From NCBI GenBank assembly GCA_963736115.1, contig CAVTNR010000017.1, positions 1 to 64,000 on the forward strand: a stretch of 64,000 bases of DNA, written 5' to 3'. The notes beneath the pieces were generated by a model. The model was not told where the DNA came from. It saw nothing but the letters and a program-made list of their open reading frames with translations, and searched no databases. A program made the position numbers and the translations under genes. This document shows positions 48,235 through 64,000 of this stretch, one piece after another (positions within the stretch are counted from its first letter, which is position 1; every line of letters begins with the position of its first letter). This stretch comes from an uncultured bacterium (GTDB taxonomy: Bacteria > Zhuqueibacterota > QNDG01 > DTFT01).

Positions 48235-48437
48235 GGATCTCCCCTGCCTTGATGTAGGTGTGTTTTCTTTCAGAAGCATTGGTTGAAAATTCATTCACCA
48301 AATTCGAGTACGGACATGGAATGTATTGTTCAAAAGAAGGATAATGCTGATTTGAACCCTGAACGGGGAAGTCGAAAGGCGAGGGGTTCCCATGACAGGA
48401 ACACTCGGAGAGGATGTTGCCGGGAATATGATTCATC

Positions 48438-48848
48438 TCATTCCCTCATTTTCTCTGTCAGGATAATCTCGCAGGTTTGAACGCAGGCAGGCTGTTCTAC
48501 GAAAAGAGGGGCTCTTTCGCGTTCGATGCCGGCGCGTACCGGATCAGAGACCCATATACGATGATACAGTCTGTCCTTCATGACAAATCGGTATTCTTTC
48601 TTGTCGCTCCGGTACTTGTTCGTGATCGGGGTAATCGGGACGTTATTACCGCTCTGGTTCAAATGAAGATCCCAGAAATTATTGACACCGGACAGAGCAG
48701 GTTTCGGCCGGAGCGGTCCGGAATCGGATTCACCGGACAGTGATATTTCATCCATGCAAATGGAATTGACAGGGGCTTCCATTGCAAGAATACCAATGCA
48801 ACTCAATAGGAATAATCCAAAAAGAATAATTTGAATTTTTCTTGTCAT
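48438..48848 (-). CDS. Hypothetical exported protein
   Basis: Signal-like N-terminus MTRKIQIILFGLFLLSC; lies between AT-rich promoter region and adhesin; no recognised domain. Confidence 0.35.
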   Translation of the reverse strand: MTRKIQIILFGLFLLSCIGILAMEAPVNSICMDEISLSGESDSGPLRPKPALSGVNNFWDLHLNQSGNNVPITPITNKYRSDKKEYRFVMKDRLYHRIWVSDPVRAGIERERAPLFVEQPACVQTCEIILTEKMRE

Positions 48849-49038
48849 CTTAATTGTTGTATTTAATATAATTAATTGTTAAAAATGGTTAATTTAATTT
48901 TGGAATGATTCCTATTATTATTGAATCGAATAGTCCTATAAATTCAATATAAACATATAATTCATTTTTTCAGGGATAAGATGCTTTTTTCATTTTAGAA
49001 TGATTTTATCAATAATTCCATTCAATAATCCTCTATTC

Positions 49039-49054
49039 TCAATTTGCATGCCAA
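49039..49054 (-). promoter_or_regulatory. Possible sigma54 (-24/-12) promoter facing the adhesin
   Basis: Minus strand TTGGCAT-GCAAA-TTGA versus TGGCAC-N5-TTGC. Confidence 0.45.
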
Positions 49055-49147
49055 TTACACCGATGGATAATATGTTCAAGTCTGTTATGTGGCACAAAGT
49101 GCCGTTGTTTACGATGGAATCCTGTCCACTGATTTCTATATAAAAGA

Positions 49148-49180
49148 AAACCTCCCGGAAGCTGAGAGTCTCCGGGAGGT
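49148..49180. repeat. Repeated hairpin family, copy 2
   Basis: aaacctcccgga...tccgggaggt downstream of minus-strand gene. Confidence 0.6.
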
Positions 49181-49209
49181 CGAATAAAGTGATACGATAT
49201 GAAACGGGA

Positions 49210-49875
49210 TTATTTTATCAGCAGCATGCGCTCCATCACCCTGAATTCCCCGGCATTGAGGACCGCCAGATAGACCCCTCCAGCCAGGTTTGAAGCATCG
49301 AAATTCAGGGTGTGTGAACCCGCGGACCGCCTTTCATCCAGCAGAACCGAGATACTCCGCCCCCGGACGTCGAGCACATGGAGGGAAACATGCATATCCC
49401 TGGGCAATTCAAACCGGATAGCGGTATACGGATTGAATGGATTCGGGAAATTGGGATGGAGAACAGGCCGCAAGGGAAGCGCCGCTCCATTTCTGTATTC
49501 CACCGCGCTCGGGGGTTTGCTGGTGGACGTGCCCGGATTGGTGACGGACGCGTATACTCCCGGCGCAGGGCTCCCAGTGGTCCAGGCCCCGGACGGATCC
49601 TGCAATTCAATCCCGTTCGAGAACCCATCCCCATCCGAATCGAGGTCGGCGAGGCCTGCTCCCCAGATCACGTTACCGTTCGAATTCACCTCAGTCAGGT
49701 ATCCGGATTGGATCGCCAGGCCGAAACTGTTTCTCGGCCCGCCCTGGCCGTTATGGCAATTGCCGCAGGTGAACTTGGCGCCGTTGGGGATTTGGTTGAC
49801 GCGTTTTTCCCGAGCAATTCCATTAATATAGAACATGGAAACAGCCAGGCCAATTAAAAACATACGCTTAAGCAT
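49210..49875 (-). CDS. Small secreted protein: CxxCH motif in temptin-like domain plus T9SS-type CTD
   Basis: RBS GAGGAGG; signal peptide; CGNCH, GGPRNSFG, DSDGDGFSNGIELQDP; NFPNPFNP...RMLLIK. Confidence 0.8.
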   Translation of the reverse strand: MLKRMFLIGLAVSMFYINGIAREKRVNQIPNGAKFTCGNCHNGQGGPRNSFGLAIQSGYLTEVNSNGNVIWGAGLADLDSDGDGFSNGIELQDPSGAWTTGSPAPGVYASVTNPGTSTSKPPSAVEYRNGAALPLRPVLHPNFPNPFNPYTAIRFELPRDMHVSLHVLDVRGRSISVLLDERRSAGSHTLNFDASNLAGGVYLAVLNAGEFRVMERMLLIK

Positions 49876-49990
49876 TTCCCGTTCCTCCTCTTTGTCTACG
49901 GAAAACTTCGGATGCAGGATTTCGATCATGAAAAAATCTGGAAATAATAATGAATTTTCGGGAAAAACGCAAACGATTTCATTCTGTAAA

Positions 49991-50023
49991 AAAACCTCCC
50001 GGAGGCATGAAGCCTTCGGGAGG
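49991..50023. repeat. Repeated hairpin family, copy 3
   Basis: aaaacctcccggaggc-atga-agccttcgggagg downstream of barrel gene. Confidence 0.6.
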
Positions 50024-50048: not shown

Positions 50049-53000
50049 CTACTTCCAGTCGAATATGCCCTCGCTGAACTTCATCCTGAGTACGATGTAG
50101 AGATTGGAATAGCTGTATTCGGAATAGGCGAAATCAGGATCGTCCAGTTTCTTGAAAACATACCCGACGCCCGCGGTCATGTTCTTTTTCAACAGAAAGC
50201 CGATGTCCGCGGCCCCGCCCGTTTTGCTCTGACCCGCGGGGGACAGGGTGACCAGCCGTAAATCAATGCCCGTGCTCCATCGCGGCATCCAGGAGAATTC
50301 CGCGCGGAGCGCATAGAGCGCGGTCGTGGTCCGGCTGGAGAACAAACCGATTTCCTCGTCGAGCAGGCGCCGTAGCGCGAACCGGGCCCCGAACTCCAGC
50401 CGCGGCGCGGGTTCCCAGTAGGCATGGCAAGAGACAATGGCCCGGTCGAGCCGCGTCTTCGGCGCCACGTGCGTGTTTTTGTCCGTGAGAATCTGCATTT
50501 TCGCGATGCCGTTGAACGCGTCGCTGCGCTCCGGCCGGAAAGCCATGCCGACCTGGTATTCGTTTCGGTTCCAGACGTCGCCCGACTTTTTCAGGTATTC
50601 GGCTCCGGTCAGCTCCATCCGTCCGATGGCGCTCAGTCCGGCCATGAGCCGGCTTTCCCCGCCCAGGCTGACCACGCGCTTGCGCAGAATCCTGTCCTGG
50701 CGCATCTCGAATTTTCCCGCGGCTTTCCAGGGCTTGTCGGGCAGGTATTCCAGGGCCACGGAAACGGCGTTGTTCTCCGGGGTGGGCACCTCGAGGGAGT
50801 CGACGGTCGCCACGCTTTCCAGCGCGATGTTGAGCGTCAGGTCGGGACGCACGGCCCACTTGTTCTTCAATCCGATGGATGCGCGGCTCATATCCTCGCC
50901 CGTGACCCCGCCGATTTCGTATTTGCCGGTCACGAGGGTGTTCCTGCCGAAGCGGGAATCGATGCCCAGGAGGGTCTGCGTCCGGCGACCGGCGCCGCTG
51001 AGCAGCCGTTCCTTGGCGAAGAACTGTATCCTCTGGGTCAGGTCCACGCGGATGCCGACGGCCGTTCCGGTGGGCAGGGAGGTCCGGCCCTCGGCCAGGT
51101 TCTGGTCGTGCTCCAGAGTCGTCGAGAGGCGCTTCCACCATCGGTGGCTCAGCTGGGCCTTCAGCATTTTCGAGCGGTAGTCCCGGGAGGACGCGGAATC
51201 GGCTCCGGCGCGGTTCCGCTCCGCGTCTTCGTATCCGAGCTTCGCGGTTGTCGCCTCGCCGAGCGCGTACTCGTAGAACGCGTTGACCACCCGGGTCCGG
51301 TTCTCGTTCACCGTGCCCTGCTCGATCACCTGCCGGTAGGCCTGTGATTGGATGCGTCCGAATTTTCCGAGGCGGAGCGTGTGGTCCATCCCGACCTTTT
51401 CGCTTCCGACCTGGAACGCGCTTCCGGTCAGTGACGGGTTCTCGAAATCCTCGTCCACGCGGCGGTAATAGCCGTTCGACTCGAGTGCCGTGAAGGGCTT
51501 GAGCTTCAATTCGGCGCGAACCGCGCCGCCGTTCCGCTTCTCACCGTCGAAACCGGAGGAGAGACTGCGGGCCGCCTCGCCGCTCAGCGAGATCCGCCTG
51601 CCGATGGGAAGCGAGAGATCCGCGCCCGCGAGCACATAGTTGGAGGGCTTTTTCTCCTCGAAGACCAGGGTCGAACCGAGCCGGATCCCCTTCTTCCAGT
51701 CGCCGTCGTACCGGAGCCCGCCGATCACGTTGCGGGCCGCGCCCCCGCGGTATTCGTACGAGGCGACGATCCAGACCGGATTGCCCCCGGCGTCCTGGCT
51801 CGACACCGGCTGCTTGAACATGAGGGTGCCGTCCACGTAGTTGATATCGTAGTCCTGAAACCGCACCAGTTCGTCTGACGACAGTATCCGCTCGGGATGG
51901 TAGCGGTCGCGCGTCTCGATGCGGACCTTGTCGGTATTGATCGTGATGCGGCCGCCGGACAGGAAATAGAATCCGGATATGCCCTCGCCGCGTATCTCGT
52001 CAAGCCGCATGGTGCGGTCGTTCAGGGTGGAGAAGCCGCTCAGGGACTGGCCCTTCCAGGAGAGGCGGCCGAATACGCCGTTGAACGACCGGTCGTATTT
52101 CGCGAATTCCGCGGTTCGGAACTGGGTGTTGAAGTCGCCCGCTGCGAGAAAGGACTCGTTCCGCTCGATCTTGCCGAAGAACTTCGACTGGGTCTGGGCG
52201 TCCCAGGTCAGGGTGCTGGCGTCTCCGTACAGGGCGTACTGCTTCTCGGGGTCCAGGTCCCGGAACAGCTGGTTCTCCCGCGTCCGCCGGCTGTCGAAGG
52301 ATACCGTGGCCATGTATTTTTTCGCCACCGCGCCCTTCGCGTAAAGGGCCATGCGGCCGCTTACGGGAAGACCGCGCCATTCCCCTTCCTGAGCGGTCCA
52401 GTCGGCCAGCGTGAATTTCGGGAAGCCGGGATCCTTCAGTCCCCACTGCCGGCCGGCCACGGCCGCGTCCGCGGAACCCACCAGGATCAGCGGGCTCAGG
52501 GGCGTGGTGTAACGGACGGGCACGGCGAGGGATGCCTGCCCGACTTGCACGACGGCCTCCTCACGGCCGACGGCCCGGGCCGCGCGGATCCGGAATTCAA
52601 CGCGGTCGTCCGTCACCGGCACCTGGATGCCCGCGGACAGGGAATCCAGATCCGGGTCCGCGACGGACCCTGCGGCGATTCTCACATCCGCGGACTTCAG
52701 GCGGCGGACAGGGAACCCCCATGCGTCCTCCACGCGGATCCGGATGCCGGCTGTCGACTGGCTGTCGGCCGGAAGTTCCACACCCGCACCTTCTAACTTC
52801 AGCGACGCCGGAGCGCCGACGATGTGCACGGCGTGAACGGCTTCGAACATCCGCCCGCCGGCGCCGACGGCGCGGGCGCGCAGTTCCACGGGTCCTTCCG
52901 GAACCGGGATGTTCAGAAAGTCATACCGGCCGTCGATCCGGATTTCCCCGGAATCGGCGGGCGCGCCGTTGACGAAGAGCCACGCCCTGGCGCCCGGTTT

Positions 53001-53147
53001 TCCGGACACGACCACGGCGATGCGCCCCTGCTCCAGGACGCTGTTCTTCTTCGGCGACTTGATGGAGAGCTGTCCGGACGCGGGCACCGCGACCGCCAGA
53101 ACGGCGCACAGCAGCGGCGGGAGCCATTTTCGGTTCAGGTTCTTCAT
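50049..53147 (-). CDS. Large outer-membrane beta-barrel protein with N-terminal Ig-like domains (DUF11-operon associated)
   Basis: Signal peptide; YALYGDAS, GDFNT, DYDINYVDGTLMF; long amphipathic beta-strand C-half ending in aromatic-rich YIVLRMKF...FDWK. Confidence 0.8.
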   Translation of the reverse strand: MKNLNRKWLPPLLCAVLAVAVPASGQLSIKSPKKNSVLEQGRIAVVVSGKPGARAWLFVNGAPADSGEIRIDGRYDFLNIPVPEGPVELRARAVGAGGRMFEAVHAVHIVGAPASLKLEGAGVELPADSQSTAGIRIRVEDAWGFPVRRLKSADVRIAAGSVADPDLDSLSAGIQVPVTDDRVEFRIRAARAVGREEAVVQVGQASLAVPVRYTTPLSPLILVGSADAAVAGRQWGLKDPGFPKFTLADWTAQEGEWRGLPVSGRMALYAKGAVAKKYMATVSFDSRRTRENQLFRDLDPEKQYALYGDASTLTWDAQTQSKFFGKIERNESFLAAGDFNTQFRTAEFAKYDRSFNGVFGRLSWKGQSLSGFSTLNDRTMRLDEIRGEGISGFYFLSGGRITINTDKVRIETRDRYHPERILSSDELVRFQDYDINYVDGTLMFKQPVSSQDAGGNPVWIVASYEYRGGAARNVIGGLRYDGDWKKGIRLGSTLVFEEKKPSNYVLAGADLSLPIGRRISLSGEAARSLSSGFDGEKRNGGAVRAELKLKPFTALESNGYYRRVDEDFENPSLTGSAFQVGSEKVGMDHTLRLGKFGRIQSQAYRQVIEQGTVNENRTRVVNAFYEYALGEATTAKLGYEDAERNRAGADSASSRDYRSKMLKAQLSHRWWKRLSTTLEHDQNLAEGRTSLPTGTAVGIRVDLTQRIQFFAKERLLSGAGRRTQTLLGIDSRFGRNTLVTGKYEIGGVTGEDMSRASIGLKNKWAVRPDLTLNIALESVATVDSLEVPTPENNAVSVALEYLPDKPWKAAGKFEMRQDRILRKRVVSLGGESRLMAGLSAIGRMELTGAEYLKKSGDVWNRNEYQVGMAFRPERSDAFNGIAKMQILTDKNTHVAPKTRLDRAIVSCHAYWEPAPRLEFGARFALRRLLDEEIGLFSSRTTTALYALRAEFSWMPRWSTGIDLRLVTLSPAGQSKTGGAADIGFLLKKNMTAGVGYVFKKLDDPDFAYSEYSYSNLYIVLRMKFSEGIFDWK

Positions 53148-53154
53148 GCCCGGT

Positions 53155-56100
53155 TCACCTGCTCTTCTCAATCGTGAAATTCGCCTTGGCCATTCCGCCC
53201 GGCGGAACCAGGACGAGGCGCGATTTCGGGTCGTCGAGGAAACCGAAGTCCGACACGGTGACCCGCGTCCCCTCCGGAAGCGTCTTCTCGTTCAGCCGGA
53301 CGACGTGCTGGCCCTCCCCGACGTCCGGTATGGAATACTTGCCGAAGGTGTCGGTGCGGACGCGCGTTCCGTCCTCGAGGATCAGCTCGATGTTGCCGAT
53401 TCCGGGTTCCCCGCGGTCATGGGACGCGTTTCCGTCCAGGTCCTCGTACACCTTGCCGATGATCAGGCCGCGCTCGTCGAACGCGCCTCCGGACACGAGC
53501 ACAGCGGCGCTGGCCTCGGGAGAAACCACGAGAACGCCGCCCGCGGTCGAGGCCGTGGCCGTCGCGAGATTCTTCAGCTCCCCGCGGCCCGCGGAGAGTC
53601 CGATCCGGACACGGTATTTGATCTGCACGCTTCCTGCCGGCGGAACGGCGCGCCGGATCGTCCACGTCATCAGGGGCCGGCCGCCGGATTCCGTGACGGA
53701 TGGATCCGGTCCCGGAATCGAGTCGATCCGGGTCGTGCCGGGTTCGTACCGGAAGCCCTTGGGAAGACGGTCGAACACCATGACGGAGACCAGGGAGTCG
53801 TCCGCGCTCTGGTTCAGGCAGGTGACGGTGTAGGTCAGGACGTCGCCGCCCTGGGCCGTTTTCCGGTTCACGGTCTTGTGGACGTCCAGGAAAGACCGGA
53901 CGAGCCGCGTCCGGGCTTGGGTGCGGGAATGGTCCGCGCTTAGGGCGGTGTCGCCGTCGCAGATGATGCGCGCCGTGTTCTCGATCTCCAGGACTCCGGG
54001 CGCCAGGCCGGGCCGGACCACGGTTTTCAGGACGATCGAGTCCGGACGGCCCGCGGCGAGGCCGGACTGGACGAATTCCAGGAGGTTCGTCACCGGATCG
54101 TAGGAAACCAGCCTGGCGGAGGGTTTCAACAGCACCGATTCGGGAACCAGCGCGAGTTCGGGGGGCAAAAAGTCCGTGATCCGGACATCGCCCGTCACGT
54201 CCCGGTCGGGCACGCCGAAACGAAGAACATAGGAGAGAGTGTCACCGGAAACCGCGGTGGTTTTATCCACGGTTTTCGACAGCCAGAGGCCGTTCCCGGG
54301 CAGCAGGGTGATTGCCGCGTCCGTCACACGGATCGCGCCTGTGGAGTGCACGCAGGTCAGCCAGGCGATGTTGTCCACCCGGGTGCGCGAACCCAGCCTT
54401 TCCGTGACGCGGACGTCCAGGAACACCGTGTCCCGGTCCCCCGGAACCAGGTCGGGAAGCCGCCAGATCACGGCGCCGGTCGAACCGGACCCCGTGCCGG
54501 CCCCTGTTTTGGGCGCGGCCGTCACGGTGCGTGCCGACGCGTCGAACGTCCAGTCGGCCGTGGCGCCGATGAATTCGAGATACTCCGGCAGGGTGTCGGT
54601 CAAAACCGGATTGAACGCGGGGATGTCTCCGATGTTCGTGGACACCAGACGGTACCGGATCGTGTCGCCGATGAAGGTGGTGCGGGGTCCTGTGATCTCC
54701 AGGGCCAGCACCGGAGGCGAAATCACGGTGATGCCCCAGCGGGAACTGTCCTGGGCGCCGGCCGAGGAAACCGCCCAGACCCGGTTGTCGATGAAGGTGC
54801 TGTCCGGCACCGGCCTGGGGACGGTCACGGTGAGACGGAGCGTGTCGTGGAATCCCGGAGAGAGGTTCCGCAAAGTCCAGGTCACGATGCTGTCCCGGCA
54901 GGTGCCGCCGTGCGTCGCGGACATGAATTTCAGTCTCGGGTTCAGGGTGTCGAGAACCGTGACGGTCGTGGACTGGGCGGGAACGCCGTTCGACAGGATC
55001 AGGTCATAGGTCAGCGTGTCGCCGGCCCACCAGGTCCGTTTTGCCGCCTGCTTGATGATTTCAATGCCGGATCCGGTGTTCCGGAAGGCCGAGGCCGCGG
55101 AAGCGAGGACAGGCCCGGTCTCAACGGAGGTGAATCGGGCCGTGTTCCGTATCGTGTCCCCGGACACGGTCGCGGAAACCCGGGCCCGCAGTCGGAACTC
55201 GCGGCTCGTCCGGTAATCCAGAGAACCGATTGTCCATGTCAGGACGCCGCCGGATGTGTCCGCGGCCGGATCGGACGAGATCAGGTCCAGGCCCGCGGGC
55301 AGGATGTCGGAAACGGTCACGGAATTGAGGACTTCCGTGCCCGTGTTCGACGCGGTCATCAGGTACTCGAGCGTGTCTCCCGGGGCGCATTCGGAAGCGC
55401 CTGCGCGTTTTTCGAAGAGAATGCCCGGTTTCGAGGAAACGCGGATTTCCCAGGCCGAGCTGTCCCGCACGCCGAAGGCCGCGCGGGCCCAGGCTTCGTT
55501 CCGGATGCGCGTCCCGTCCCGGACGGGGACCGTGATTCCGGCCATGAGCTTCAGCGTGTCGCCGAAATCCGGCTCGAGACCGGAAAATTGCCAGGTGACG
55601 ATGCTGTCGGCGCAGACACCGCCGTGGGAGGCGTGGATGAAAGCCAGCCCTGGCGGCAGGGTGTCGGTCAAAGTAACATCGACCAGCGGCCGGACGCCTG
55701 AGCCCCTCAGGACCAGGCTGTAGGCGATCGTGTCGCCCGCTGCATAGGCGGTGTCACGCGCAAGCTTGACCAGCTCGATTCCGGCGCCGGGTCCGAGCGA
55801 GACCGCGGCGGCTGAGGCTGTGTCTGAATCGGCCTCGGAGGAGACGAGGACGGCGCGGTTCAAGAGCGTGTCGCCGGCCGCGCCGGATAGGGCGCGGGCC
55901 AGAAGGGTCAGGCGGGCCTGCCCGTCTTTGGGGAGAAGGTCGACCGTCCAGGAGACGACGGATCCGTCGACTTCCACGGTCCGGTCGGATGAAAGGAATG
56001 TCAGCCCTTCGGGCAATGTGTCGCGGACCGCCACATGGGTCAGGTCCGTGACACCGGTGTTGCGGGCCGTCAGGGCATAGGCGAGCGTGTCGCCCGCGTA

Positions 56101-56688
56101 GAAGCGCCGAGGCGAAACGGTTTTCGAAAGTTCCGCCTCGGACCACGGCAACCAGCGGACAGGAACGGGCGCCGACCGGCCGGCCGGCGTCCCGTCCGCC
56201 GAATAGGATACGCGGTTGACAATGGTTTCGGAGTAGTTGGATTTCAGAACCCTGCAATGGAGCCGGAGGGTGACGGACGCGCCGGGATCAATCGAGGGAA
56301 GAATCCACTCGACCGCATTTCCCCGGACCGTGCCCGAAGGAACGGATGAAACGAGGGAGAGCATGACGGGAAGCGAGTCCGTGATCGTGACCCGGGTCAG
56401 GCGGGCGGTTCCCGCGTTCCTCGCCGTGATTTCATACGCGAGGGTGTCGCCAGCGGACACGGACGTGCGGGAGGCGGTCTTCACCACCTCCAGCACGCCG
56501 GCCCTGACTTCGGTCACGACCGTGTCGGTCGGCAGGGTGACCACCGTGCCGGCGCCGCCGTCATACGACACATAGGCCGTATTCACGATGGCGGCGCCGG
56601 CCGGGGCCTGTGCCGCCCATGCCGAACCGGTCAGGATCGCTGTGAACAATCCGGACAGTAAGGAAAATTTACTGTTCTGCCGCTTCAT
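53155..56688 (-). CDS. Secreted protein with 8 DUF11 (TIGR01451) repeats and C-terminal SdrD-B-like domain; putative pilus base
   Basis: Repeats K...GDTLxY...N...DxLP...IxNxA; N-terminal orphan strand APAGAAIVNTAYVSY; IGKVYEDLDGN tail. Confidence 0.85.
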   Translation of the reverse strand: MKRQNSKFSLLSGLFTAILTGSAWAAQAPAGAAIVNTAYVSYDGGAGTVVTLPTDTVVTEVRAGVLEVVKTASRTSVSAGDTLAYEITARNAGTARLTRVTITDSLPVMLSLVSSVPSGTVRGNAVEWILPSIDPGASVTLRLHCRVLKSNYSETIVNRVSYSADGTPAGRSAPVPVRWLPWSEAELSKTVSPRRFYAGDTLAYALTARNTGVTDLTHVAVRDTLPEGLTFLSSDRTVEVDGSVVSWTVDLLPKDGQARLTLLARALSGAAGDTLLNRAVLVSSEADSDTASAAAVSLGPGAGIELVKLARDTAYAAGDTIAYSLVLRGSGVRPLVDVTLTDTLPPGLAFIHASHGGVCADSIVTWQFSGLEPDFGDTLKLMAGITVPVRDGTRIRNEAWARAAFGVRDSSAWEIRVSSKPGILFEKRAGASECAPGDTLEYLMTASNTGTEVLNSVTVSDILPAGLDLISSDPAADTSGGVLTWTIGSLDYRTSREFRLRARVSATVSGDTIRNTARFTSVETGPVLASAASAFRNTGSGIEIIKQAAKRTWWAGDTLTYDLILSNGVPAQSTTVTVLDTLNPRLKFMSATHGGTCRDSIVTWTLRNLSPGFHDTLRLTVTVPRPVPDSTFIDNRVWAVSSAGAQDSSRWGITVISPPVLALEITGPRTTFIGDTIRYRLVSTNIGDIPAFNPVLTDTLPEYLEFIGATADWTFDASARTVTAAPKTGAGTGSGSTGAVIWRLPDLVPGDRDTVFLDVRVTERLGSRTRVDNIAWLTCVHSTGAIRVTDAAITLLPGNGLWLSKTVDKTTAVSGDTLSYVLRFGVPDRDVTGDVRITDFLPPELALVPESVLLKPSARLVSYDPVTNLLEFVQSGLAAGRPDSIVLKTVVRPGLAPGVLEIENTARIICDGDTALSADHSRTQARTRLVRSFLDVHKTVNRKTAQGGDVLTYTVTCLNQSADDSLVSVMVFDRLPKGFRYEPGTTRIDSIPGPDPSVTESGGRPLMTWTIRRAVPPAGSVQIKYRVRIGLSAGRGELKNLATATASTAGGVLVVSPEASAAVLVSGGAFDERGLIIGKVYEDLDGNASHDRGEPGIGNIELILEDGTRVRTDTFGKYSIPDVGEGQHVVRLNEKTLPEGTRVTVSDFGFLDDPKSRLVLVPPGGMAKANFTIEKSR

Positions 56689-56699
56689 ATCTCCCGGTG

Positions 56700-56719
56700 A
56701 CCGTCCCGTTGGGGACGGT
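56700..56719 (-). terminator. Hairpin immediately after putative major subunit gene, no U-tract
   Basis: accgtccc-gttg-gggacggt. Confidence 0.5.
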
Positions 56720-58380
56720 TAATCGATGACCACCTGGAACGAAACCGTCACCGAAGCGCCGGCTGCAACCGTTCCCACTCCGAAAACCGCAGTCGTGCCG
56801 TCGCACTCGCTTTCATCGGTCGGAGAGTCGGAGGCGTCGGTTGGATTCGCGGCGCCGACATACAGAGTTCCGGACTGATAGGTGGTGTTCGCCGGAACAG
56901 CGTCCTTGACAACGACATTGGTCGCGTCTCCGGACCCGCTGTTGGTGATCGTGACCGAATAGGTCAGCGTGGCTCCCGGGGGTTGGTCGCCGGCGGGGGA
57001 CACTTCCTTGTCGAGGCTGAGGACGGGAGCCGTCACCGTGGTGGTGGCGGTCTCGTCGCTGGTGGCCGAGTTGTCGTCCGATGTGGCGCGGAACACGGAA
57101 GCGTCCACGGTGGCGTCCGCCGTCCCCGCGGGTATGGTCGCGACCGCCCACATGGCCTGGGAGCCGCCCGATGCAATCGAACCGGTGTTCGTGGCGGCTA
57201 CGTCGCCGGCGTCGAAAATGCCGTTGTCGTTGGCGTCGATGTAAAACGTCCATGACCAGGTCTGGGTGCTCGACACGTTGGAGAGCGTGTAGCTGTCCGC
57301 CCCGTTTCCGCTGTTGTTCACCGTGATCAGGTAGCGGACCACGTCTCCGGGATCGCCGCTCTGGGAGGCCGGAGCGATGTCGGTCGAGAAACCGTAGGTT
57401 TCGTTCACGGTCACGCGTCGGCCGTTGGTGTTGTTCGCGACCGCGACGACCTGCGTGTACGGCTGGGTGGCGCTGTCGTTGTAGTCAAGCGTGATCTGGT
57501 TGTCGATGGTGGTTCCGGCGGCCAGGGGCGAGTTCACCTGCACCTGGTAGGTGATGGTGCCGGATCCGCCCGCGGTCACGTTGCCGACGGACACCGGAAC
57601 GCCTGAGCCCGTGCCCGTGGGCGTACCGTTGAGCGTCACGTTGCCCACCCACGCGCAGTTGGCAGGCACCGGAAGGGCGACGGATACGCCGTAGGCCGTC
57701 TCGGAGTTGGTGTCGTTGCTGTTGCCGTAGGTGACCGTGTAGGTGATGACGTCGCCCGGATCCTTGGCAACGGCGTCCGGAGAAAGGCCGGCGGTCATCA
57801 GGGCGGCCTGGACGGTGGTGGTCAGAACCGAATTGTCGGTCGCGGCGCCGCTGCCCTGCGACGTTGCGGTCACGGTGGTCACGTACTGTTCACCCTGGGT
57901 GCCGTCCGCGTCGGAAACGACCACAACAAGATAATAAACGGAGTCTGCGGCAAGAGCGGACGTCGCGGACACGACTGATTCGCCTGCGTCATAAACTCCG
58001 TCCCGGTCCGTGTCCTCGTAAATGGTGACCGTGTGGCCGGAGCCGGTTGTGAGCTGGGACAGATCGAACGTGTCCGTCCCGTTCCCGGTGTTCTCGACGG
58101 TCAGGGCATAGGTCACGCTCTGGTTGCGCGGCAGGTTCTTGGACTGCGTGGACTCGATATCCACGCCGAAGGCCTGCGCGACCGTGGTCGACACTTCATC
58201 GGACTCGATTCGTGTCGCGGGGTCGTCGACGTCGGCGATGACATTGCCGTTTGCGTCGCTGTAGCCGCCGTAGGCCCGGTTGGTGATGACCGTTCCGGCA
58301 GGCGTGCCCGCCGCGAACGTCTGCGCCGCGAGGCCGAAGGCCAGCAGCACAGTCATTGCGAATGACATCTTCCTGTTCAT
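56719..58380 (-). CDS. Secreted DUF11/Ig-repeat protein; putative major pilin
   Basis: RBS AAGGAG; signal ending QTFA; mature N-terminus AGTPAGTVITNRAYGGY; C-terminal DUF11 truncated at VSFQVVID. Confidence 0.85.
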   Translation of the reverse strand: MNRKMSFAMTVLLAFGLAAQTFAAGTPAGTVITNRAYGGYSDANGNVIADVDDPATRIESDEVSTTVAQAFGVDIESTQSKNLPRNQSVTYALTVENTGNGTDTFDLSQLTTGSGHTVTIYEDTDRDGVYDAGESVVSATSALAADSVYYLVVVVSDADGTQGEQYVTTVTATSQGSGAATDNSVLTTTVQAALMTAGLSPDAVAKDPGDVITYTVTYGNSNDTNSETAYGVSVALPVPANCAWVGNVTLNGTPTGTGSGVPVSVGNVTAGGSGTITYQVQVNSPLAAGTTIDNQITLDYNDSATQPYTQVVAVANNTNGRRVTVNETYGFSTDIAPASQSGDPGDVVRYLITVNNSGNGADSYTLSNVSSTQTWSWTFYIDANDNGIFDAGDVAATNTGSIASGGSQAMWAVATIPAGTADATVDASVFRATSDDNSATSDETATTTVTAPVLSLDKEVSPAGDQPPGATLTYSVTITNSGSGDATNVVVKDAVPANTTYQSGTLYVGAANPTDASDSPTDESECDGTTAVFGVGTVAAGASVTVSFQVVID

Positions 58381-58561
58381 TGCTGTTGCTCCTTGTCTTG
58401 GTTTTTTAACAGTTTCGATTGCCGTTGATGACACAGTTCCGGTCTTCGTCCGGCGCTACGGAGGGCCGTGATTGGCGGATCCTCCCCGATAGTCGAGGGA
58501 TCTCATACAGATACCTCCTTTTCTTTTTTTTTGTTTATACTTTATTAATTTAAATATCGCA

Positions 58562-59044
58562 TTATTCCACAACCGCGCGGAAGGACAGGGTCTTCCGCCC
58601 CCCAGGCGCCAGAGTGTCTTTCAGGATCCACTTGATGTGCGTAACCTCTTCATTTCTGGCCGGCCGTTCGATTTTCACGCCATTGACGTTGGTGGCCGTT
58701 ACCATCACGGGCCATACCGAGTAGACCATCCCCTTGTTGACCGAGAACACGATTCTGCAGTTGTCGCCTCTGGCCGAGTCGACGATGTAACGGACACCCT
58801 CCGGAACGGGATCCACGACCTCGGGCTGGGTCATGACCCCTGTCCCCGCGTTCCCGGCGAGAATGACGTATTCAATGGTATCGCCGGGCGCATAGGACAC
58901 CGGCGTTTTGCCGGATATTTCGTCCGCGGTCATGTTGATTTTCCGCTCGGAGACGTCCAGCTGCAGCTTCGGCTTCCCCTGGGCGAACGCCTGGAGGGCG
59001 GTCAGGGCCAGTCCGAGAGACAGGATGATGCGGATGCGTTTCAT
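58562..59044 (-). CDS. Small secreted single DUF11-like domain protein; putative chaperone or cap
   Basis: Signal ending QAFA; PGDTIEY...N...DPVP...VTHIKW...LAPG...LSFRAVVE stop. Confidence 0.8.
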   Translation of the reverse strand: MKRIRIILSLGLALTALQAFAQGKPKLQLDVSERKINMTADEISGKTPVSYAPGDTIEYVILAGNAGTGVMTQPEVVDPVPEGVRYIVDSARGDNCRIVFSVNKGMVYSVWPVMVTATNVNGVKIERPARNEEVTHIKWILKDTLAPGGRKTLSFRAVVE

Positions 59045-59070
59045 GGTGTTTCCCCCTTCGTGGATGGTGG

Positions 59071-62000
59071 TCATTGTATCCTCACTCTGAATGTGACTTC
59101 GCCGGATTCAGCCGGCGCCAGCGCGGAAGGCCGCTGGAACCTGATGTGCGTGACCGGCGCCGTGTCTGCGCCGTCGTAACTGGAACCGCCGTTGTGGCTG
59201 TAAAAGACGTTCATGCCGGATGCGGAGACGGATCCGGTGACGAAGGTGGTGCGTGCCGGTATGGTCTCCAGGACGGTTACGGCCGTGGCGTTTCCGTCCC
59301 CGATGTTCTCGTATCCGATGGTGTAGGTCAGTTCTTCGCCCGGCGCGGCGGTTCCCTTGTCCACGGACTTGGAAAGAACAAGCTGGGGAGCGCCGACGCC
59401 CGTGCCCTGGATGGCAAAGGTGTAGGGATTCTCATCCGAGTCGTTGTTCTCGATGGAGACGGAGGCGGAACGGGCGCCGATGGCCGACGGATTGAATGTG
59501 ATCTGGAACGAGGTGCTGTCACCCATCGGGTCCACGGCGGACTCGGGCGTCAGGGTCACGGTGAAATCGGAGGCGTGGGCGCCGGAAACGGAGACATGGG
59601 GGGAACCGCCGGTCAGGGTCAGCACCGCGCTGCCCGGATTCCGGATTTTGAACGTGTGGGTGACCGTCGCCCCGGAGACCGGGGCGTTCCCGAAGTCCGT
59701 GTCGTCCGCGACGGACGGGGTCGCGTCGCCGCTGGCGATCTCCACGTCCCGGCCGGTCACCTTGATTTCGGGGGCCGCCGTTCCGGTGCCCTGAACGGTG
59801 AAGTTGTAGGGATTCTCGTCCGAATCGCCGTTGAAGATCCGGATCTCGGCCTGCCGCAGTCCCGTGAGAGTCGGGTTGAAAGTCACCCGGAAGGTCAGGG
59901 ATCCGCCGCCCGCGGGCACGACGCCGGAGGAAGGCTGCTGGCTGACCAGGAAATCGCCGGCATTCGCGCCCGTGATTTCCACGCGCGGCGTGCCGGTCAG
60001 GCTCAGGTCCGCGCTGCCGGTGTTGAAAATCGTAAAGGTGCGGGTGATGGTATCCGTCAGAATGTCCCCGCTGCCGAAATCCGTGGAATCCGTGACGGAC
60101 GGAGCGGCGTCTCCGTCCGCGATGGATACGCCGTTGCCCCGCACGTCCATTTCCGGAGTCGCGGTGCCGGTGCCCTGGATGGAGAAGTTGTACGGATTCT
60201 CGTCCGGGTCCGTGTTGGCGACGGTGATTTCAGCGGACCGGAGTCCGACGGCGGAGGGGTTGAAGCGCACGACGAAGGTCACGGAGCCGTTGACGGCCAC
60301 GGTGCCGGACGCGGGCTGGGTCACGACGCTGAAATCCGCCCCGTTCGCGCCCGCGATCTGGACACGGGGCGAACCGGTCAGGAGGAGGGACTCGGTGGCG
60401 GTGCCCAGGTTCCGGATGGTGAAGGTGCGGTCGATCGTGCCCGTGAGGATGTCGAGGCTCCCGAAATCCGTGTGGTCCGACAGGGAAGGCGCGGTGTCTC
60501 CGTCGGGGATCGACACGGAATTGCCCTGCACGTCCATTTCCGGGGCCAGGCCCGTGCCCTGGATCGCGAAATTGTACGGATCCTCGTTCGAGTCGTTGTT
60601 GTAGATGGTGATGGTCGCGGACCGCAGGCCTATGCCGCCGGGGTCGAAGCGCACCTGGAAGGTGGTGGAAACGTTCCTCGCGATGGTCGAGGACGGGTCG
60701 ACGATCACGGTGAAGTCCGCGGCGTGTGTCCCGCCGATCTCCACGAGGGGCGTGCCGTACAGGGTCAGTGCGGCTGCGCCGGTGTTGCGGATGGTGAACG
60801 TCCGCCTGACGGTTCCGAGATAAGCCGAAGCGCTGCCGAATTCCGTGCTGTCCAGAACGGACGGCGTGGCATCACCGTCCGCGATGGTCCTGTTGTTGCC
60901 TCGCACATCGATTTCAGGGAAAGTCGTCTGCCGGATGGCAGCGTCGCAATTCGTGATGAGAATGTTGGCGGTCATGAGGTAATTGGCCGTGTTCCCGGTT
61001 GTCGCGTTGGGATCGCTGTCCAGGTCGTCGTTGCCGCCCAGGTTCTGCTTTCCTATGATGTAACCGCCCGGCAGGCCGCCGTTGAAATTCACGTAGTACT
61101 GGGATCCAGCGGTCAGTCCGCCGAAGTAGTAGAATCCGTCCGAATTGGTCGTGGTCGTTGATGTCAGAACCCCGCCGGATGTGTACAGCCGCACCAGAAC
61201 GCCGGGCACGCCGAGTTCACCCGAATCCTGTATCCCGTCGTTGTCCGTGTCCTCCCAGACCCGGTCCCCGATGCCCGTGGTGCGCACGCCGGCGTCGTAC
61301 AAGTCTTTGATTTCGCCCGCGGACAGGCTGAATGTCGCCGTAATGCCGGTCGCATCCGCGTCGCTGTCGATGAAGTCGTTCGATCCCTGATCCCGCAGGG
61401 CGAAGGAAAAGCCGGCGGGAAGTCCGGAGAACCGGAGGTAGTATTGCCCCACGGTGATGCCGCTGAAACCGTACGCGCCGTCCCCGTCCGTCACCGTCGA
61501 CGCCACTATTGCGCCGCCGCTGGTGTGCAGGGTGACGGTCACGCCGGACATTCCGGGTTCCTCCGAATCCTGGATGCCGTCGTTGTCCTGGTCGATCCAC
61601 ACGAAATTGCCCGCGTAGCCCGTGCTCGGGAAGGGCGCCGGGGCGAGGGGGCAGGAAGCGCCGTCGTTGTTGTTCAGGCCTGATACGCCGGTGCCGATAT
61701 ACACGCTCTCGCCCGAGGAAACATCGATACGATACAAACGGCCGCTCTGGTTGTTTCCCGCGTACAGATAGCCGTCGCTGGCCGTCCACGTGGCGCCCCA
61801 GGTGCCGTTGTTGATGCCCGCGTCATAATCGTCCGCCAGGCTGCCGGTGATGGAAGAAGCGACTGTCTGCCCCGATGATCCGTTGAAACGGTAGAGCTCC
61901 TTGTAGTACACCCCCCAGAAATACCCGTCCTGCGTCCGGTAGGCCATGTCGCGCGCGAGAAAGGCCGGTCCGCCCGTGGCCTGTGTTGTCACCGTGTTCG

Positions 62001-64000
62001 CGCTGATGTCGTATCGCGCCATCTGGGTTCCTGCGTCGTTGATCACGTACAGATTTCCCGAAAGGTCGCAGTCTCCCACCCACCCAAGCCAGGGCGCGGC
62101 CCTCATGTTGGTGATGGCTCCGGCCTCGTCGATGCGGATGAAGCGGTCTCCGCTGTAAACGGACCCGCGCTCGATGGCGTACATGAATCCGTCCTCGTAA
62201 TTGTACCCCACGGCATTGATCGTGTATCCGGCGGAGCGGATGTTGATATAGGAATACGGGTTGGTCGAGGGATCGAGGTACGTGATGCTTCCGCTCGTCT
62301 CGTAGATGTGAAAGAACCGGGACATGCAGGGGATGGGATTGCCGGAGGATGTGCCCGTTCCCTGAATCGCGAACGTATAAGGGTTCTCGTCCGGATCATT
62401 GTTGCCGATCGTGACGAGGGCGGTCCGCAGATCGATCGCGGAAGGGTCGAATTCGATGGTGAACGTGACGCTGGCGTTGACGGCCACCGGCGTGGGCGGC
62501 TGGGCCGTGACCGTGAAATCCGAGGCATTCGTTCCTGAAATGCTCACGCGGGGCGAACCGGACAGGTTCAAGTCGTCGCTTCCGGAGTTGGAAATCGTGA
62601 AGGTCCTCGATTCGGTGACACTGCCCGCGGACTGGACGTCCCCGAAATCCGTGCCGTCCGCCGTTTCCGGCGCCAGATCGCCGCTCGCGATCGTGAGGCC
62701 GTTCCCGGACACGGCCATCTCCGGAAGAATGACGCCCCTGCCCTGAATGGAGAACGTGTACGGGTCCTCATTGTCGTCCACGTCGTCGTTGGCAATGCTG
62801 ATCACGGCCGTGCGGACTCCCGTCGCGGACGGGTTGAAACGCACGGTGAACAGAACCGTACTGCCCGGGGCGATGGGCGAACTCGGCTGGAGGGTCACGC
62901 TGAAGTCCGCGGCGTGCGTCCCGGAGAGCGCCACGAGGGGCGAGCCGGTCAGGCTCAGGTCCGACGTTCCCGCGTTCAGGATGGAATAATTGACCATCCG
63001 CACGCCTGAGGTGACTTCCACGCTTCCCAGATCCGTGCTGTCCGTTGCGGACGGTGTCGGGTCTCCGGACGCGATCTCGACCGAGTTGCCGGTCACAACG
63101 ATTTCGGGATCGTGCACGAGAACGCCTGCGCCGGAGAGCGGCGTGAATCCGTCCAATCCGGCGGATTTCTCGGAGGAGGCGTCGAGGCCGTCCAGCTGAA
63201 ACGCGCCGCTCTTCGAACCGGCGGCAGGGCCGGCCGCGGTTTCCGCGGAAATGCCGGTGCCCTGCAGGTTCAGGATCAAACGGCTCGCATCCGGATCGTT
63301 GTTCGTGATCGTGAGAAAGGCCGTTTTCAGCCCGACGGTCAGGGGACGGAAGCGCATCGACAGTTCCGTTTCCCCGGCCGGCGGCAGGAAGGATGCAGGC
63401 TGGTTGAGGATGAGGAAATGGGCGGCGTCGTTTCCTGACACGAACAGAGGCGTTTCGACAGCCAGGTCCGAACCGCCTGTATTGACGAGGGTGAAGGTGA
63501 CGAGTGGTTCCGAACCGAAATCGTAAGTCGCGCCGTCGACCAAGGGGGCGCCGTTCACGAGCACGCCGATCCGGCCGGGTTCCGCGGCTGTTTCTGGTAC
63601 GGCTTCGGCCGTGCCTGTCAGATATAAATAGTACGGATTCTCATCCGCGTCATTCGTTCCGATCGCAAGGGACGCGTTTTGGACGCCTGCGGACAAGGAA
63701 CTGAAGCGGACTGAGAAGGAGGTTTCGGCTCCTGGATCCACATCGCCGGATGGCTGTGAAACAACCCGGAATGCATCCGAACTGTCCAGCGTCAGCGGAA
63801 CGGTCAGGGTCAGAACTTCATTCCCTGCATTACGGACCGTGAAAGTGACGGTCGTGTCCGATCCGGCCGGGAGAGTTCCAAAATCCAGCGTTCCGCCTGA
63901 AGAAACCGCGAAGCCGCCCGCGACCGTCACATCCGCTTCCGCGGCTTTGGGCAGGCTGCCCTGGAAATCGATGCCGGTCGTGTCGGACAGGACGTCCATC
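59071..64000 (-). CDS. Large adhesin, 5'-partial: choice-of-anchor D repeats, DUF6923-like domain, 2 SdrD-B, C-terminal truncated DUF11; putative tip adhesin
   Basis: Repeated TDFG...FTIxN.G...F.P...G.R.A...NDxDENPY; GDRVWEDTDNDGIQD; ends LSKSVD...ETIP...VTFRVRIQ. Confidence 0.85.
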   Translation of the reverse strand, partial: MDVLSDTTGIDFQGSLPKAAEADVTVAGGFAVSSGGTLDFGTLPAGSDTTVTFTVRNAGNEVLTLTVPLTLDSSDAFRVVSQPSGDVDPGAETSFSVRFSSLSAGVQNASLAIGTNDADENPYYLYLTGTAEAVPETAAEPGRIGVLVNGAPLVDGATYDFGSEPLVTFTLVNTGGSDLAVETPLFVSGNDAAHFLILNQPASFLPPAGETELSMRFRPLTVGLKTAFLTITNNDPDASRLILNLQGTGISAETAAGPAAGSKSGAFQLDGLDASSEKSAGLDGFTPLSGAGVLVHDPEIVVTGNSVEIASGDPTPSATDSTDLGSVEVTSGVRMVNYSILNAGTSDLSLTGSPLVALSGTHAADFSVTLQPSSPIAPGSTVLFTVRFNPSATGVRTAVISIANDDVDDNEDPYTFSIQGRGVILPEMAVSGNGLTIASGDLAPETADGTDFGDVQSAGSVTESRTFTISNSGSDDLNLSGSPRVSISGTNASDFTVTAQPPTPVAVNASVTFTIEFDPSAIDLRTALVTIGNNDPDENPYTFAIQGTGTSSGNPIPCMSRFFHIYETSGSITYLDPSTNPYSYINIRSAGYTINAVGYNYEDGFMYAIERGSVYSGDRFIRIDEAGAITNMRAAPWLGWVGDCDLSGNLYVINDAGTQMARYDISANTVTTQATGGPAFLARDMAYRTQDGYFWGVYYKELYRFNGSSGQTVASSITGSLADDYDAGINNGTWGATWTASDGYLYAGNNQSGRLYRIDVSSGESVYIGTGVSGLNNNDGASCPLAPAPFPSTGYAGNFVWIDQDNDGIQDSEEPGMSGVTVTLHTSGGAIVASTVTDGDGAYGFSGITVGQYYLRFSGLPAGFSFALRDQGSNDFIDSDADATGITATFSLSAGEIKDLYDAGVRTTGIGDRVWEDTDNDGIQDSGELGVPGVLVRLYTSGGVLTSTTTTNSDGFYYFGGLTAGSQYYVNFNGGLPGGYIIGKQNLGGNDDLDSDPNATTGNTANYLMTANILITNCDAAIRQTTFPEIDVRGNNRTIADGDATPSVLDSTEFGSASAYLGTVRRTFTIRNTGAAALTLYGTPLVEIGGTHAADFTVIVDPSSTIARNVSTTFQVRFDPGGIGLRSATITIYNNDSNEDPYNFAIQGTGLAPEMDVQGNSVSIPDGDTAPSLSDHTDFGSLDILTGTIDRTFTIRNLGTATESLLLTGSPRVQIAGANGADFSVVTQPASGTVAVNGSVTFVVRFNPSAVGLRSAEITVANTDPDENPYNFSIQGTGTATPEMDVRGNGVSIADGDAAPSVTDSTDFGSGDILTDTITRTFTIFNTGSADLSLTGTPRVEITGANAGDFLVSQQPSSGVVPAGGGSLTFRVTFNPTLTGLRQAEIRIFNGDSDENPYNFTVQGTGTAAPEIKVTGRDVEIASGDATPSVADDTDFGNAPVSGATVTHTFKIRNPGSAVLTLTGGSPHVSVSGAHASDFTVTLTPESAVDPMGDSTSFQITFNPSAIGARSASVSIENNDSDENPYTFAIQGTGVGAPQLVLSKSVDKGTAAPGEELTYTIGYENIGDGNATAVTVLETIPARTTFVTGSVSASGMNVFYSHNGGSSYDGADTAPVTHIRFQRPSALAPAESGEVTFRVRIQ

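Follow-up and report, generated by a model that had tools for sequence, protein, structure and literature searches.

We analysed a 64,000-nucleotide stretch of DNA (the window; positions 1 to 64,000, forward strand, of contig CAVTNR010000017.1, assembly GCA_963736115.1) from an uncultured bacterium of the Zhuqueibacterota and found, between positions 50049 and 64000, a five-gene operon that probably encodes a surface fibre built from split DUF11 domains. Three of its proteins end in a DUF11 domain lacking the last part of the fold, two carry, directly behind the signal peptide, a hairpin that corresponds to the missing part, and complex prediction docks the hairpin of one of them into its truncated domain. 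A split-domain pilus, probably self-ligating, is the explanation that we favour.

A five-gene operon encoding truncated and complete DUF11 domains

The list of open reading frames (ORFs) with their translations gave five co-directional ORFs in this region, all on the minus strand and separated by gaps of 0 to about 180 nt. Signal-peptide-like segments are present at the N-terminus of all five proteins. The operon occurs in a single copy in the genome, which is 87% complete. The features are listed below in window positions; the hidden Markov model (HMM) is the DUF11 profile described in the next section.

59071-64000 (5′ end outside the window, at contig position 64815), minus strand: putative tip adhesin, 1914 amino acids (ORF, Pfam/NCBIfam, profile)
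59074-59394, minus strand: acceptor domain of the adhesin, approximately residues 1808-1914, with Lys in LSKSV and Glu in LETIP; ends at HMM position 82/119
58562-59074, minus strand: 170-amino-acid protein, acceptor-only; signal peptide and one truncated DUF11 domain with a long insertion
56719-58434, minus strand: 571-amino-acid shaft candidate; signal peptide, donor hairpin, three immunoglobulin (Ig)-like domains and a truncated C-terminal DUF11 acceptor
58150-58311, minus strand: donor hairpin of the 571-amino-acid protein, residues 42-95; Asn strand (N52) and a second strand directly behind the signal-peptide cleavage site
56722-57039, minus strand: acceptor domain of the 571-amino-acid protein, residues 466-571; K476 and D511 invariant in 115 family rows
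53155-56688, minus strand: 1177-amino-acid base or terminator candidate; signal peptide, donor hairpin, eight complete DUF11 repeats and an SdrD_B-like C-terminal domain; no acceptor
56494-56613, minus strand: donor hairpin of the 1177-amino-acid protein, residues 26-65, aligning to the part missing from the acceptors
53467-56493, minus strand: eight complete DUF11 repeats of the 1177-amino-acid protein (profile/Pfam)
53158-53466, minus strand: SdrD_B-like C-terminal domain of the 1177-amino-acid protein (Pfam/NCBIfam)
50049-53171, minus strand: 1040-amino-acid predicted outer-membrane protein; signal peptide, Ig-like domains and barrel; no family
52452-53069, minus strand: two Ig-like domains of the 1040-amino-acid protein, residues ~35-240 (AlphaFold2 model)
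50076-52370, minus strand: ~36-39 beta strands of the 1040-amino-acid protein, residues 268-1032 (AlphaFold2 model)

Pfam and NCBIfam searches confirmed DUF11/TIGR01451 in four of the five proteins. With PF01345 (cut-off 24.6 bits) the 1177-aa protein scored 335.7 bits, the 571-aa protein 66.5 and the adhesin 34.6; the 170-aa protein remained under this cut-off (21.9 bits) and passed that of TIGR01451 (26.6 versus 24). In the 1177-aa protein the two databases recognised seven to eight repeats, followed by the SdrD_B-like last domain. The adhesin comprises, behind its signal peptide, choice-of-anchor D/HYDIN-like Ig domains, a DUF6923 repeat domain, SdrD_B domains and the truncated C-terminal DUF11; no donor motif was found at its N-terminus. 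Met19 is likely the start of the 571-aa protein (a 553-aa form is on record). The database names of these proteins are DUF11 or TIGR01451 repeat protein, or hypothetical only. Among the 7752 ORFs of at least 120 aa in the genome, the DUF11 profile matched five, four of them in the operon, including all three with a truncated domain.

Truncated acceptors and donor hairpins

An HMM of 119 positions was built from the eight complete repeats of the 1177-aa protein. These repeats keep the order Lys, DxLP, Asn that a preliminary description of this DNA had read in them, with the strand-A Lys in seven of eight and both the Asp of DxLP and the Asn of the following strand in all eight. In the adhesin, the 170-aa and the 571-aa proteins alike, the C-terminal domain finishes at HMM position 82, with one residue left over, and the Pfam/NCBIfam match is incomplete at the three C-termini as well (profile positions 2-82 of 114 in the 571-aa protein). 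The 37 absent positions correspond to a loop, the Asn strand and the final strand. The earlier statement that three domains stop before the Asn strand was thus correct, and the termini quoted with it, like the motifs LDKEV, LSKSV, KDAVP and LETIP, are present in the translations as written.

The same description proposed that two proteins start with the missing piece. The 1177-aa protein indeed has 40 extra residues (26-65) between the signal peptide and the first complete repeat, which align to exactly the missing part, and residues 42-95 of the 571-aa protein form the equivalent hairpin; both hairpins carry the IxNxA motif. The proposal therefore holds for the Asn strand but not for a single strand, since the donor is a hairpin of two strands. 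Profile and alignment give the anatomy from which tip, shaft and base roles had been assigned: an acceptor alone in the adhesin and in the 170-aa protein, a donor together with an acceptor in the 571-aa protein, and a donor alone in the 1177-aa protein. Being acceptor-only or donor-only, the adhesin, the 170-aa and the 1177-aa proteins cannot be completed in cis.

The split architecture recurs in many phyla

We gathered 80 loci with an alignment of 17 homologues of the 1040-aa protein. According to the database records they span Neomarinimicrobiota, Bacteroidota/Ignavibacteriota, Lentisphaeria, Planctomycetota, Verrucomicrobiota, Nitrospirota, Desulfuromonadales and Alpha-, Beta- and Gammaproteobacteria. 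The DUF11 profile matched 166 plus-strand ORFs in these loci, and in 51 of them the last match lay within five residues of the C-terminus. Fifty of the 51 stop at HMM positions 78-84 (40 exactly at position 82), and one has a complete domain. This uniform truncation point is not due to chance.

Shaft- and base-like proteins carry a conserved N-terminal motif straight behind the signal peptide, roughly GTxAGTxIxNxAxxxY, with SNxVxxxV about ten residues further on. A strict donor pattern was found within the first 130 residues of 91 of the 166 DUF11-matching ORFs, as against 35 of the 893 other ORFs, about 11 of which are operon pilins missed by the profile. The invariance of the Asn in the donor alignment was discarded as evidence, since the rows had been picked with a pattern containing that Asn and the argument would be circular.

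Co-occurrence was counted in 52 loci, those in which the sequence ahead of the barrel ORF extends for at least 2.5 kb. A donor+acceptor ORF lies upstream in 40 loci and an acceptor-only ORF in 26; in 31, either the barrel ORF or a donor-only DUF11 ORF bears a donor, and all three features occur together in 17. The 12 loci with no donor+acceptor match comprise four Bacteroidota with a motif variant in which the Asn is shifted or lost, one with Lys instead of Asn, one with the motif past residue 130 of an over-long ORF, two in which the upstream stretch is filled by the base gene, one fragmented, one masked, and two from Uabimicrobium, in which no pilin genes were found upstream of the barrel. 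The order tip, small protein, shaft, base and barrel repeats in L002, L003, L022 and the second operon of L007. The 170-aa family has conserved orthologues in nearly every lineage and provides the sole acceptor-only protein in cassettes such as L076. The survey of gene order and donor/acceptor pattern, proposed earlier as a check, thus found the pattern beside barrel homologues in many phyla; truncation, donor motif, their conservation and their co-occurrence are established by computation.

Some loci depart from the common arrangement. One Marinimicrobia-type contig bears two such operons in tandem (L007, 825-13006 and 13666-23001), the second with two shaft paralogues of 630 and 574 aa. In Candidatus Uabimicrobium (L066, 9239-13093; L068, 8879-12745) the barrel protein of about 1285 aa opens with what looks like a complete DUF11 domain and lacks the donor motif; this variant may be a stand-alone form or another use of the barrel. 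In L011, L016, L025, L033 and L023 (Bacteroidota/Ignavibacteriales) the donor motif of one shaft branch reads ...ITSNAS...; the Asn is lost in L033 and Lys is present instead in L023 (...ITTKAK...). This branch, whose acceptors have no Lys at the usual place, may use another cross-link chemistry or no cross-link.

Predicted docking of the donor hairpin

A complex was predicted from residues 466-571 and residues 42-212 of the 571-aa protein, each with its family alignment. The hairpin was placed in the truncated domain with an interaction prediction score from aligned errors (ipSAE) of 0.82, the best of three controls reaching 0.00; this ipSAE mark was attained for 58 of 80 solved complexes and 2 of 110 mismatched pairs, counts that are only rough because our own alignment was used. 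Contact agreement between the runs was at least 99% and the predicted local distance difference test score (pLDDT) of the partner at least 89. The acceptor had a pLDDT of 89-90 with the donor and of 63-70 with unrelated partners, and the hairpin docked in the acceptor even though its own first domain was in the input. The docking, as a prediction, is established by these computations. In the predicted interface, donor residues 50-61 run antiparallel to acceptor residues 502-512, and donor residues 76-88 lie against 472-478 and 482-490; the donor contributes residues 42-44, 48, 50-61, 63, 65-67, 69-70 and 76-88. K476, D511 and N52 are all interface residues. The listed pairs fit a register that sets V507 against Y58 and D511 against A54, and N52 would then lie diagonally beside D511 on the core face. 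Since the two parts are halves of a domain solved in complete form, the complex score may partly reflect the likeness to that known fold.

The AlphaFold2 model of the whole 571-aa monomer (pLDDT 81.5, predicted template modelling score (pTM) 0.54) also has a structured hairpin, with a pLDDT of 86-92, and a C-terminal domain at 82-95. Given the confident strands, the hairpin is packed in cis somewhere in this model. The fear that the N-terminal strand folds back is therefore answered only in part: the complex prediction docks it in the acceptor, but the monomer gives it structure as well, and the fold of the single chain is ambiguous between cis and trans. Closed, self-complemented monomers reportedly exist for FimA. 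Predictors often close donor-strand subunits on themselves, and TafA is described in this way.

A first alternative is that the operon encodes ordinary, independent surface proteins. The truncated C-terminus would then be a degenerate domain or a sorting signal, for example of the type IX secretion system (T9SS), and the hairpin would belong to its own first domain or close on itself. The structured hairpin of the monomer suits such proteins, and a T9SS-like tail noticed by eye on a neighbouring gene product (49210-49929) means that such sorting may exist in this organism. However, Pfam and NCBIfam revealed no sorting-domain family on the three C-termini (no Por_Secre_tail-type domain at E ≤0.01), and the same architecture is found in Proteobacteria and Planctomycetota. 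The truncation point common to 50 of 51 ORFs, the proteins that cannot be completed in cis and the placement of the hairpin in the acceptor even with its own first domain present also argue against independent proteins, which we hold to be very improbable.

The Lys/Asp/Asn triad

The repeat profile matched the solved CLIPPER domain 9IFR (E 1.2e-8), with Lys and Asp in identical columns. An isopeptide involving Lys715, Asp748 and Asn806 of 9IFR has been demonstrated crystallographically (PMC12617251). A phmmer search of the 1177-aa protein against the PDB sequences returned SdrD only, for the last domain, and a profile search was needed for 9IFR and GhpA.

The family of the 571-aa protein was collected by whole-protein similarity (565 matches). 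We aligned 114 of the best 120 matches with the window protein, giving 115 rows; P0116 (the window's own), P0119 and P0187 (near-twins) and P0127, P0132 and P0211 (partial) were left out. At a mean column identity of 39%, no row deviates at the acceptor residues K476 and D511, and conservation of the donor residue N52 is at least 90%. The counterparts of these residues in the internal domains lie outside the conserved columns. Tip homologues of the same lineage retain the Lys in L[SN]KS..DK and the Asp/Glu preceding IP.

Other lineages gave a mixed picture. The 25 aligned members of the 170-aa family have no conserved Lys and no conserved Lys/Asp pair, and in Proteobacteria Asn stands for Asp. 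Asp occupies position 39 in 39 of 48 donor+acceptor domains; among the larger acceptor-only domains it does so in 14 of 29. For domains with a PG motif, a crude count relative to that motif places a Lys in the expected range in 12 of 55 that combine donor and acceptor and in 13 of 26 larger acceptor-only ones; hmmalign with trimming had dropped strand A from most acceptors. Proteobacterial shafts have a conserved Lys in a different register (NPK ahead of the PG motif), and we draw no conclusion on those lineages. In one Bacteroidota branch the Lys is missing from the expected place, and in one locus a Lys takes the position of the donor Asn. Because the triad is mixed elsewhere, the covalent lock, as judged from these alignments, is well supported for the lineage of the window only.

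These data bear on a second alternative, in which the fibre is complemented strand by strand in the same manner but held non-covalently as in chaperone-usher pili, Lys, Asp and Asn serving folding or hydrogen bonding. The split architecture is kept in the 170-aa family and in several lineages where the triad is absent or altered, so complementation seems workable in its absence; a Lys-Asn contact is not explicit among the listed complex pairs, and bond-free DUF11 domains are reported in the CLIPPER paper (PMC12617251). Against this, K476 and D511 are invariant and N52 nearly so in a family with a mean column identity of 39%, the residues occupy the columns of the proven 9IFR triad, and engineered split Cna-type domains are reported to self-ligate (PMC5333627). 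A non-covalent fibre appears unlikely to us, and we retain the self-ligating pilus.

A predicted giant barrel, fused to the base in Proteobacteria

The 1040-aa protein had no Pfam match at E ≤0.01 and no NCBIfam match. Its AlphaFold2 model (mean pLDDT 81, pTM 0.73) comprises two Ig-like domains followed by ~36-39 strands, with a small strand-rich insert near residues 395-460; the alignment had 87 rows, 86 of the 115 matches being used after fragments, near-duplicates and fused forms above 1500 aa were left out. The fifth protein, called a barrel in the preliminary description, accordingly models as what is probably a very large outer-membrane beta-barrel. A word-indexed search returned the 115 homologues, and an exhaustive search over 50%-identity clusters gave 2778 representatives at E≤0.001, 2219 at 1e-10 and 1153 at 1e-30, a family of thousands of representatives that neither Pfam nor NCBIfam models. 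In Foldseek the TM-scores were about 0.2 with SlpA, MtrB, FimD, LptD and BtuB, and VIA-align gave Z of about 11 with porins, AlgE, PapC/FimD, MtrB and SlpA (PapC/FimD: Z 10.9, root mean square deviation 5.6 Å, 309 residues aligned). The N-terminal domains resemble generic Ig/FN3-like modules. These structural comparisons exclude no family.

Among the matches listed, most relatives are long fusions in which the barrel forms the C-terminal part. Residues 934-1140 of the 1177-aa protein, covering the last DUF11 repeat and the SdrD_B-like domain, are collinear with residues 363-559 of a 1695-aa proteobacterial protein (E 2e-16) in which the barrel match starts from about residue 650. Among the 35 fused barrel ORFs of at least 1400 aa, 29 have the donor motif at the N-terminus, and four of the other six are cut by the contig end. 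This fusion of base and barrel, read from alignments, is the best evidence that the two would act together.

An OmpA peptidoglycan-binding domain was found ahead of the barrel part in two of the four fused forms scanned. In the gammaproteobacterial fused proteins of L065 (7040-13012) and L067 (6959-12838), an OmpA-family domain lies at residues 801-903 and 782-884, respectively, between stalk and barrel. Its location just before the barrel part suggests that this segment is periplasmic, and it would tie the anchor of the fibre to the cell wall.

Proposed assembly of the fibre

The operon would encode a diderm surface fibre built from split CLIPPER (DUF11) domains. From the anatomy described above we infer a covalent bond, homopolymerisation, a direction of growth and roles for the barrel and the 170-aa protein, as follows. 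Subunits would be exported by Sec, and each joint would be formed by a C-terminal acceptor devoid of its last two strands and the N-terminal hairpin of the next subunit, bared by removal of the signal peptide. Completion of an Ig fold by the N-terminal extension of the next subunit, here with two strands rather than one, is predicted by the complex and implied by the anatomy. The distal end, where the chain would start, would be an acceptor-only subunit, either the 1914-aa adhesin or the 170-aa protein, and the 571-aa protein would add head to tail. Having a donor but no acceptor, the 1177-aa protein would end the chain as its base and stay with the barrel. The polarity would be that of chaperone-usher pili, with growth at the base and a terminator unable to accept a strand. 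After docking, N52 would lie beside K476 and D511 and an enzyme-free Lys-Asn isopeptide would form, as inside complete CLIPPER domains. The 1040-aa barrel would serve as export pore and anchor, passing the chain and holding the base. We read the 170-aa protein as a default distal cap because it is near-universal across lineages and is the sole acceptor-only protein in L076-type cassettes; it might alternatively be a reversible chaperone that caps the donor.

Several observations weigh against this reading. A tail profile made from the last 37 columns of the complete repeats gave no score of at least 8 bits with the N-termini of 1059 locus ORFs, the profile being weak because only eight divergent short rows were available to build it. 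Alignment by hhalign of 71 donor hairpins with the eight complete repeats laid the donor motif on the Asn strand (positions 89-99), and this same-place match of donor and tail was not significant (E 0.15, probability 0.4%). The case for the split is based on position, motif, conservation and predicted docking, not on significant similarity between donor and tail. The 25 pairs listed for the complex include no direct contact between K476 and N52, and to this come the structured hairpin of the monomer model and, outside the lineage of the window, the 170-aa family with no conserved Lys, the variable Asp at position 39 and the divergent Bacteroidota loci. Of 167 genomes in the phylum, 8 have the barrel (of the 105 that are of high quality, 5), a patchy distribution, and Foldseek and VIA-align found no specific structural relative for it, so its role is deduced from context. 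A further difficulty is the survival of an unfinished domain in the periplasm with no chaperone. Finally, every line of evidence is sequence analysis or prediction.

Whether the 571-aa protein repeats along the fibre separates our model from a third alternative, a fixed multi-subunit fibrillar adhesin in which a single tip and a single base, joined by one 571-aa adaptor or a few of them, are plugged into the barrel, in other words a giant adhesin delivered in pieces. The base, with its eight repeats, could supply most of a stalk and the tip is very large; shaft-to-shaft addition in vivo is an inference only, and the two different donor+acceptor genes present in some loci (L076, L065, L007) suit an ordered chain. 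On the other hand, the shaft donor is predicted to dock in the shaft's own type of acceptor, and there is no evident bar to repeated addition for a protein with a compatible donor and acceptor. We consider a fixed assembly quite unlikely, and the polymerising, probably self-ligating pilus remains the reading that we prefer.

In its broadest form the proposal would extend to a widespread class of diderm fibres, next to the chaperone-usher, type IV, type V and curli classes, whose joints are all naturally split CLIPPER domains and whose whole chain, from tip to terminator, is covalent, is made with no chaperone, usher or sortase, and uses a new family of giant barrels as pore and anchor. The fused forms would then extend the covalent chain into the barrel polypeptide, and the lineages would constitute a natural library of Tag/Catcher-like pairs. 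This wider reading is put forward tentatively, as we find it slightly more doubtful than not.

Comparison with known fibres

One close parallel is with chaperone-usher pili (type 1 and P), with which the proposed fibre would share an accept-only tip adhesin, a chain terminator, an outer-membrane barrel exporting and holding the fibre, and an equal polarity. These pili differ in their donor, one strand instead of a two-strand hairpin, and in their fold, which here is CLIPPER/CnaA-like with a likely covalent lock. The usher barrel has 24 strands, whereas the barrel modelled here has ~36-39 and resembles PapC/FimD only generically. In agreement with the earlier remark that the window has no sortase or classical usher, the 87%-complete genome gave no match to the usher PF00577, to PapD_N PF00345 or to the sortase PF04203; positive controls matched in E. 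coli for the usher, in E. coli and Deinococcus for PapD_N and in three Gram-positive genomes for the sortase. Sortase-assembled pili of Gram-positive bacteria also have tip, shaft and base pilins, whose Cna-type Ig-like domains make up a covalent fibre, but their subunits are linked by sortase at LPXTG motifs, and the C-termini of the operon proteins finish on a beta strand with no LPXTG.

Two systems combine strand complementation with covalent links. BsaA fibres of Clostridium perfringens are described as forming by donor-strand exchange followed by a self-catalysed intermolecular isopeptide between N35 and K74, with Glu56 as catalyst and support from mutants (10.1101/2024.11.04.621531). The likeness would lie in strand exchange and in a self-catalysed Lys-Asn bond between subunits; BsaA differs in its TasA-like fold, its monoderm host, SipW processing and the lack of an outer-membrane barrel, of a tip/shaft/base set and of sequence relation to DUF11. 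No TasA/camelysin-like family was among the Pfam/NCBIfam matches of the five proteins, and there is no peptidase gene among the five. In the threads of Sulfolobus acidocaldarius, donor-strand complementation is joined to covalent links between subunits with no known enzyme, the N-terminal amine of Asp24 being bonded to Asn57 of subunit n+2; the fold is another one, with no Pfam family, and the host is archaeal and has no outer membrane (PMC9715654).

The 1177-aa repeats are ordinary members of the domain family of CLIPPER fibrillar adhesins (9IFR), with the same triad columns, but in those adhesins the bond is described as lying within one chain (PMC12617251). The words 'split', 'truncated' and 'SpyTag' are absent from the main text of that paper, whose supplementary Tables S2/S3 might list truncated CLIPPER proteins. 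SpyTag/SpyCatcher and split RrgA are reported to be Cna-type domains in two parts that reassemble and ligate with no enzyme (PMC5333627); those splits are man-made, whereas the one proposed here would occur in nature, be conserved and serve polymerisation. For type V pili, no FimA/Mfa fimbrillin family was among the Pfam/NCBIfam matches, and by eye the signal sites are of the Ala-x-Ala type with no lipobox Cys. The fused proteobacterial forms recall type Va autotransporters, being composed of an N-terminal passenger and a C-terminal barrel; compared with the 12-strand autotransporter barrel, the 1040-aa protein has no Pfam match and about three times as many strands in its model.

The system had been presented as a candidate for an undescribed pilus. 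We found no published split CLIPPER domain, no account of this barrel family and no covalent enzyme-free diderm pilus in a search that had subscription-only papers and supplements outside its range; strand exchange with a self-made bond, however, is already known from BsaA. Given the BsaA and archaeal-thread precedents, the principle of strand complementation with a covalent link is not new. A review of October 2026, in the part covered here, names chaperone-usher, type IV, sortase-assembled and curli routes and no such route among them. If our model is right, a fibre that is complemented by strands, made covalent without an enzyme and equipped with a barrel family of its own would be an added assembly route, and the thousands of 'DUF11 domain-containing proteins' with an apparently broken last domain would be explained. 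An annotation rule would follow: acceptor-only for tip, donor plus acceptor for shaft, donor-only or barrel-fused for base. The model would also show how folded, cross-linked Ig-like domains might cross the outer membrane via a ~36-39-strand barrel, and it could provide new self-ligating peptide/protein pairs for engineering. The cultured carriers Thalassolituus alkanivorans and Erythrobacter sanguineus could make the system testable.

Neighbourhood of the operon

A second giant secreted protein of 2097 aa is encoded at window positions 42001-48294 on the minus strand. By eye, its N-terminal part is like the DUF6923/SdrD_B region of the adhesin. It contains many repeats of about 70 aa (TYTVTYEGNG...) and ends without a DUF11 acceptor; the final 30 residues seem to bear no relation to the repeats, and the protein may be truncated or misassembled. 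Paralogous small ORFs of 136 and 132 aa directly precede both giant adhesin genes, at window positions 48438-48848 and contig positions 64817-65215 (L001 5818-6216), on the minus strand. Both lie in a low-GC stretch and share the motif NKYRSDKKEYR and an identical 16-nt junction that contains their stop codon and precedes an ATG; the DNA alignment has a column identity of 65%. Between the two adhesin loci the GC content falls to 0.47 (window 48001-50000), as compared with 0.58-0.67 in the adjacent 2-kb windows.

The neighbouring gene at window positions 49210-49929, on the minus strand, encodes a secreted protein of 239 aa with a CxxCH-like motif (CGNCH), an Asp-rich stretch like a calcium site and, judged by eye, a T9SS-type tail. 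Upstream of the adhesin, at L001 6740-7960 and 8044-11232, the contig encodes a porin-like protein and one of 1062 aa whose tail is similar.

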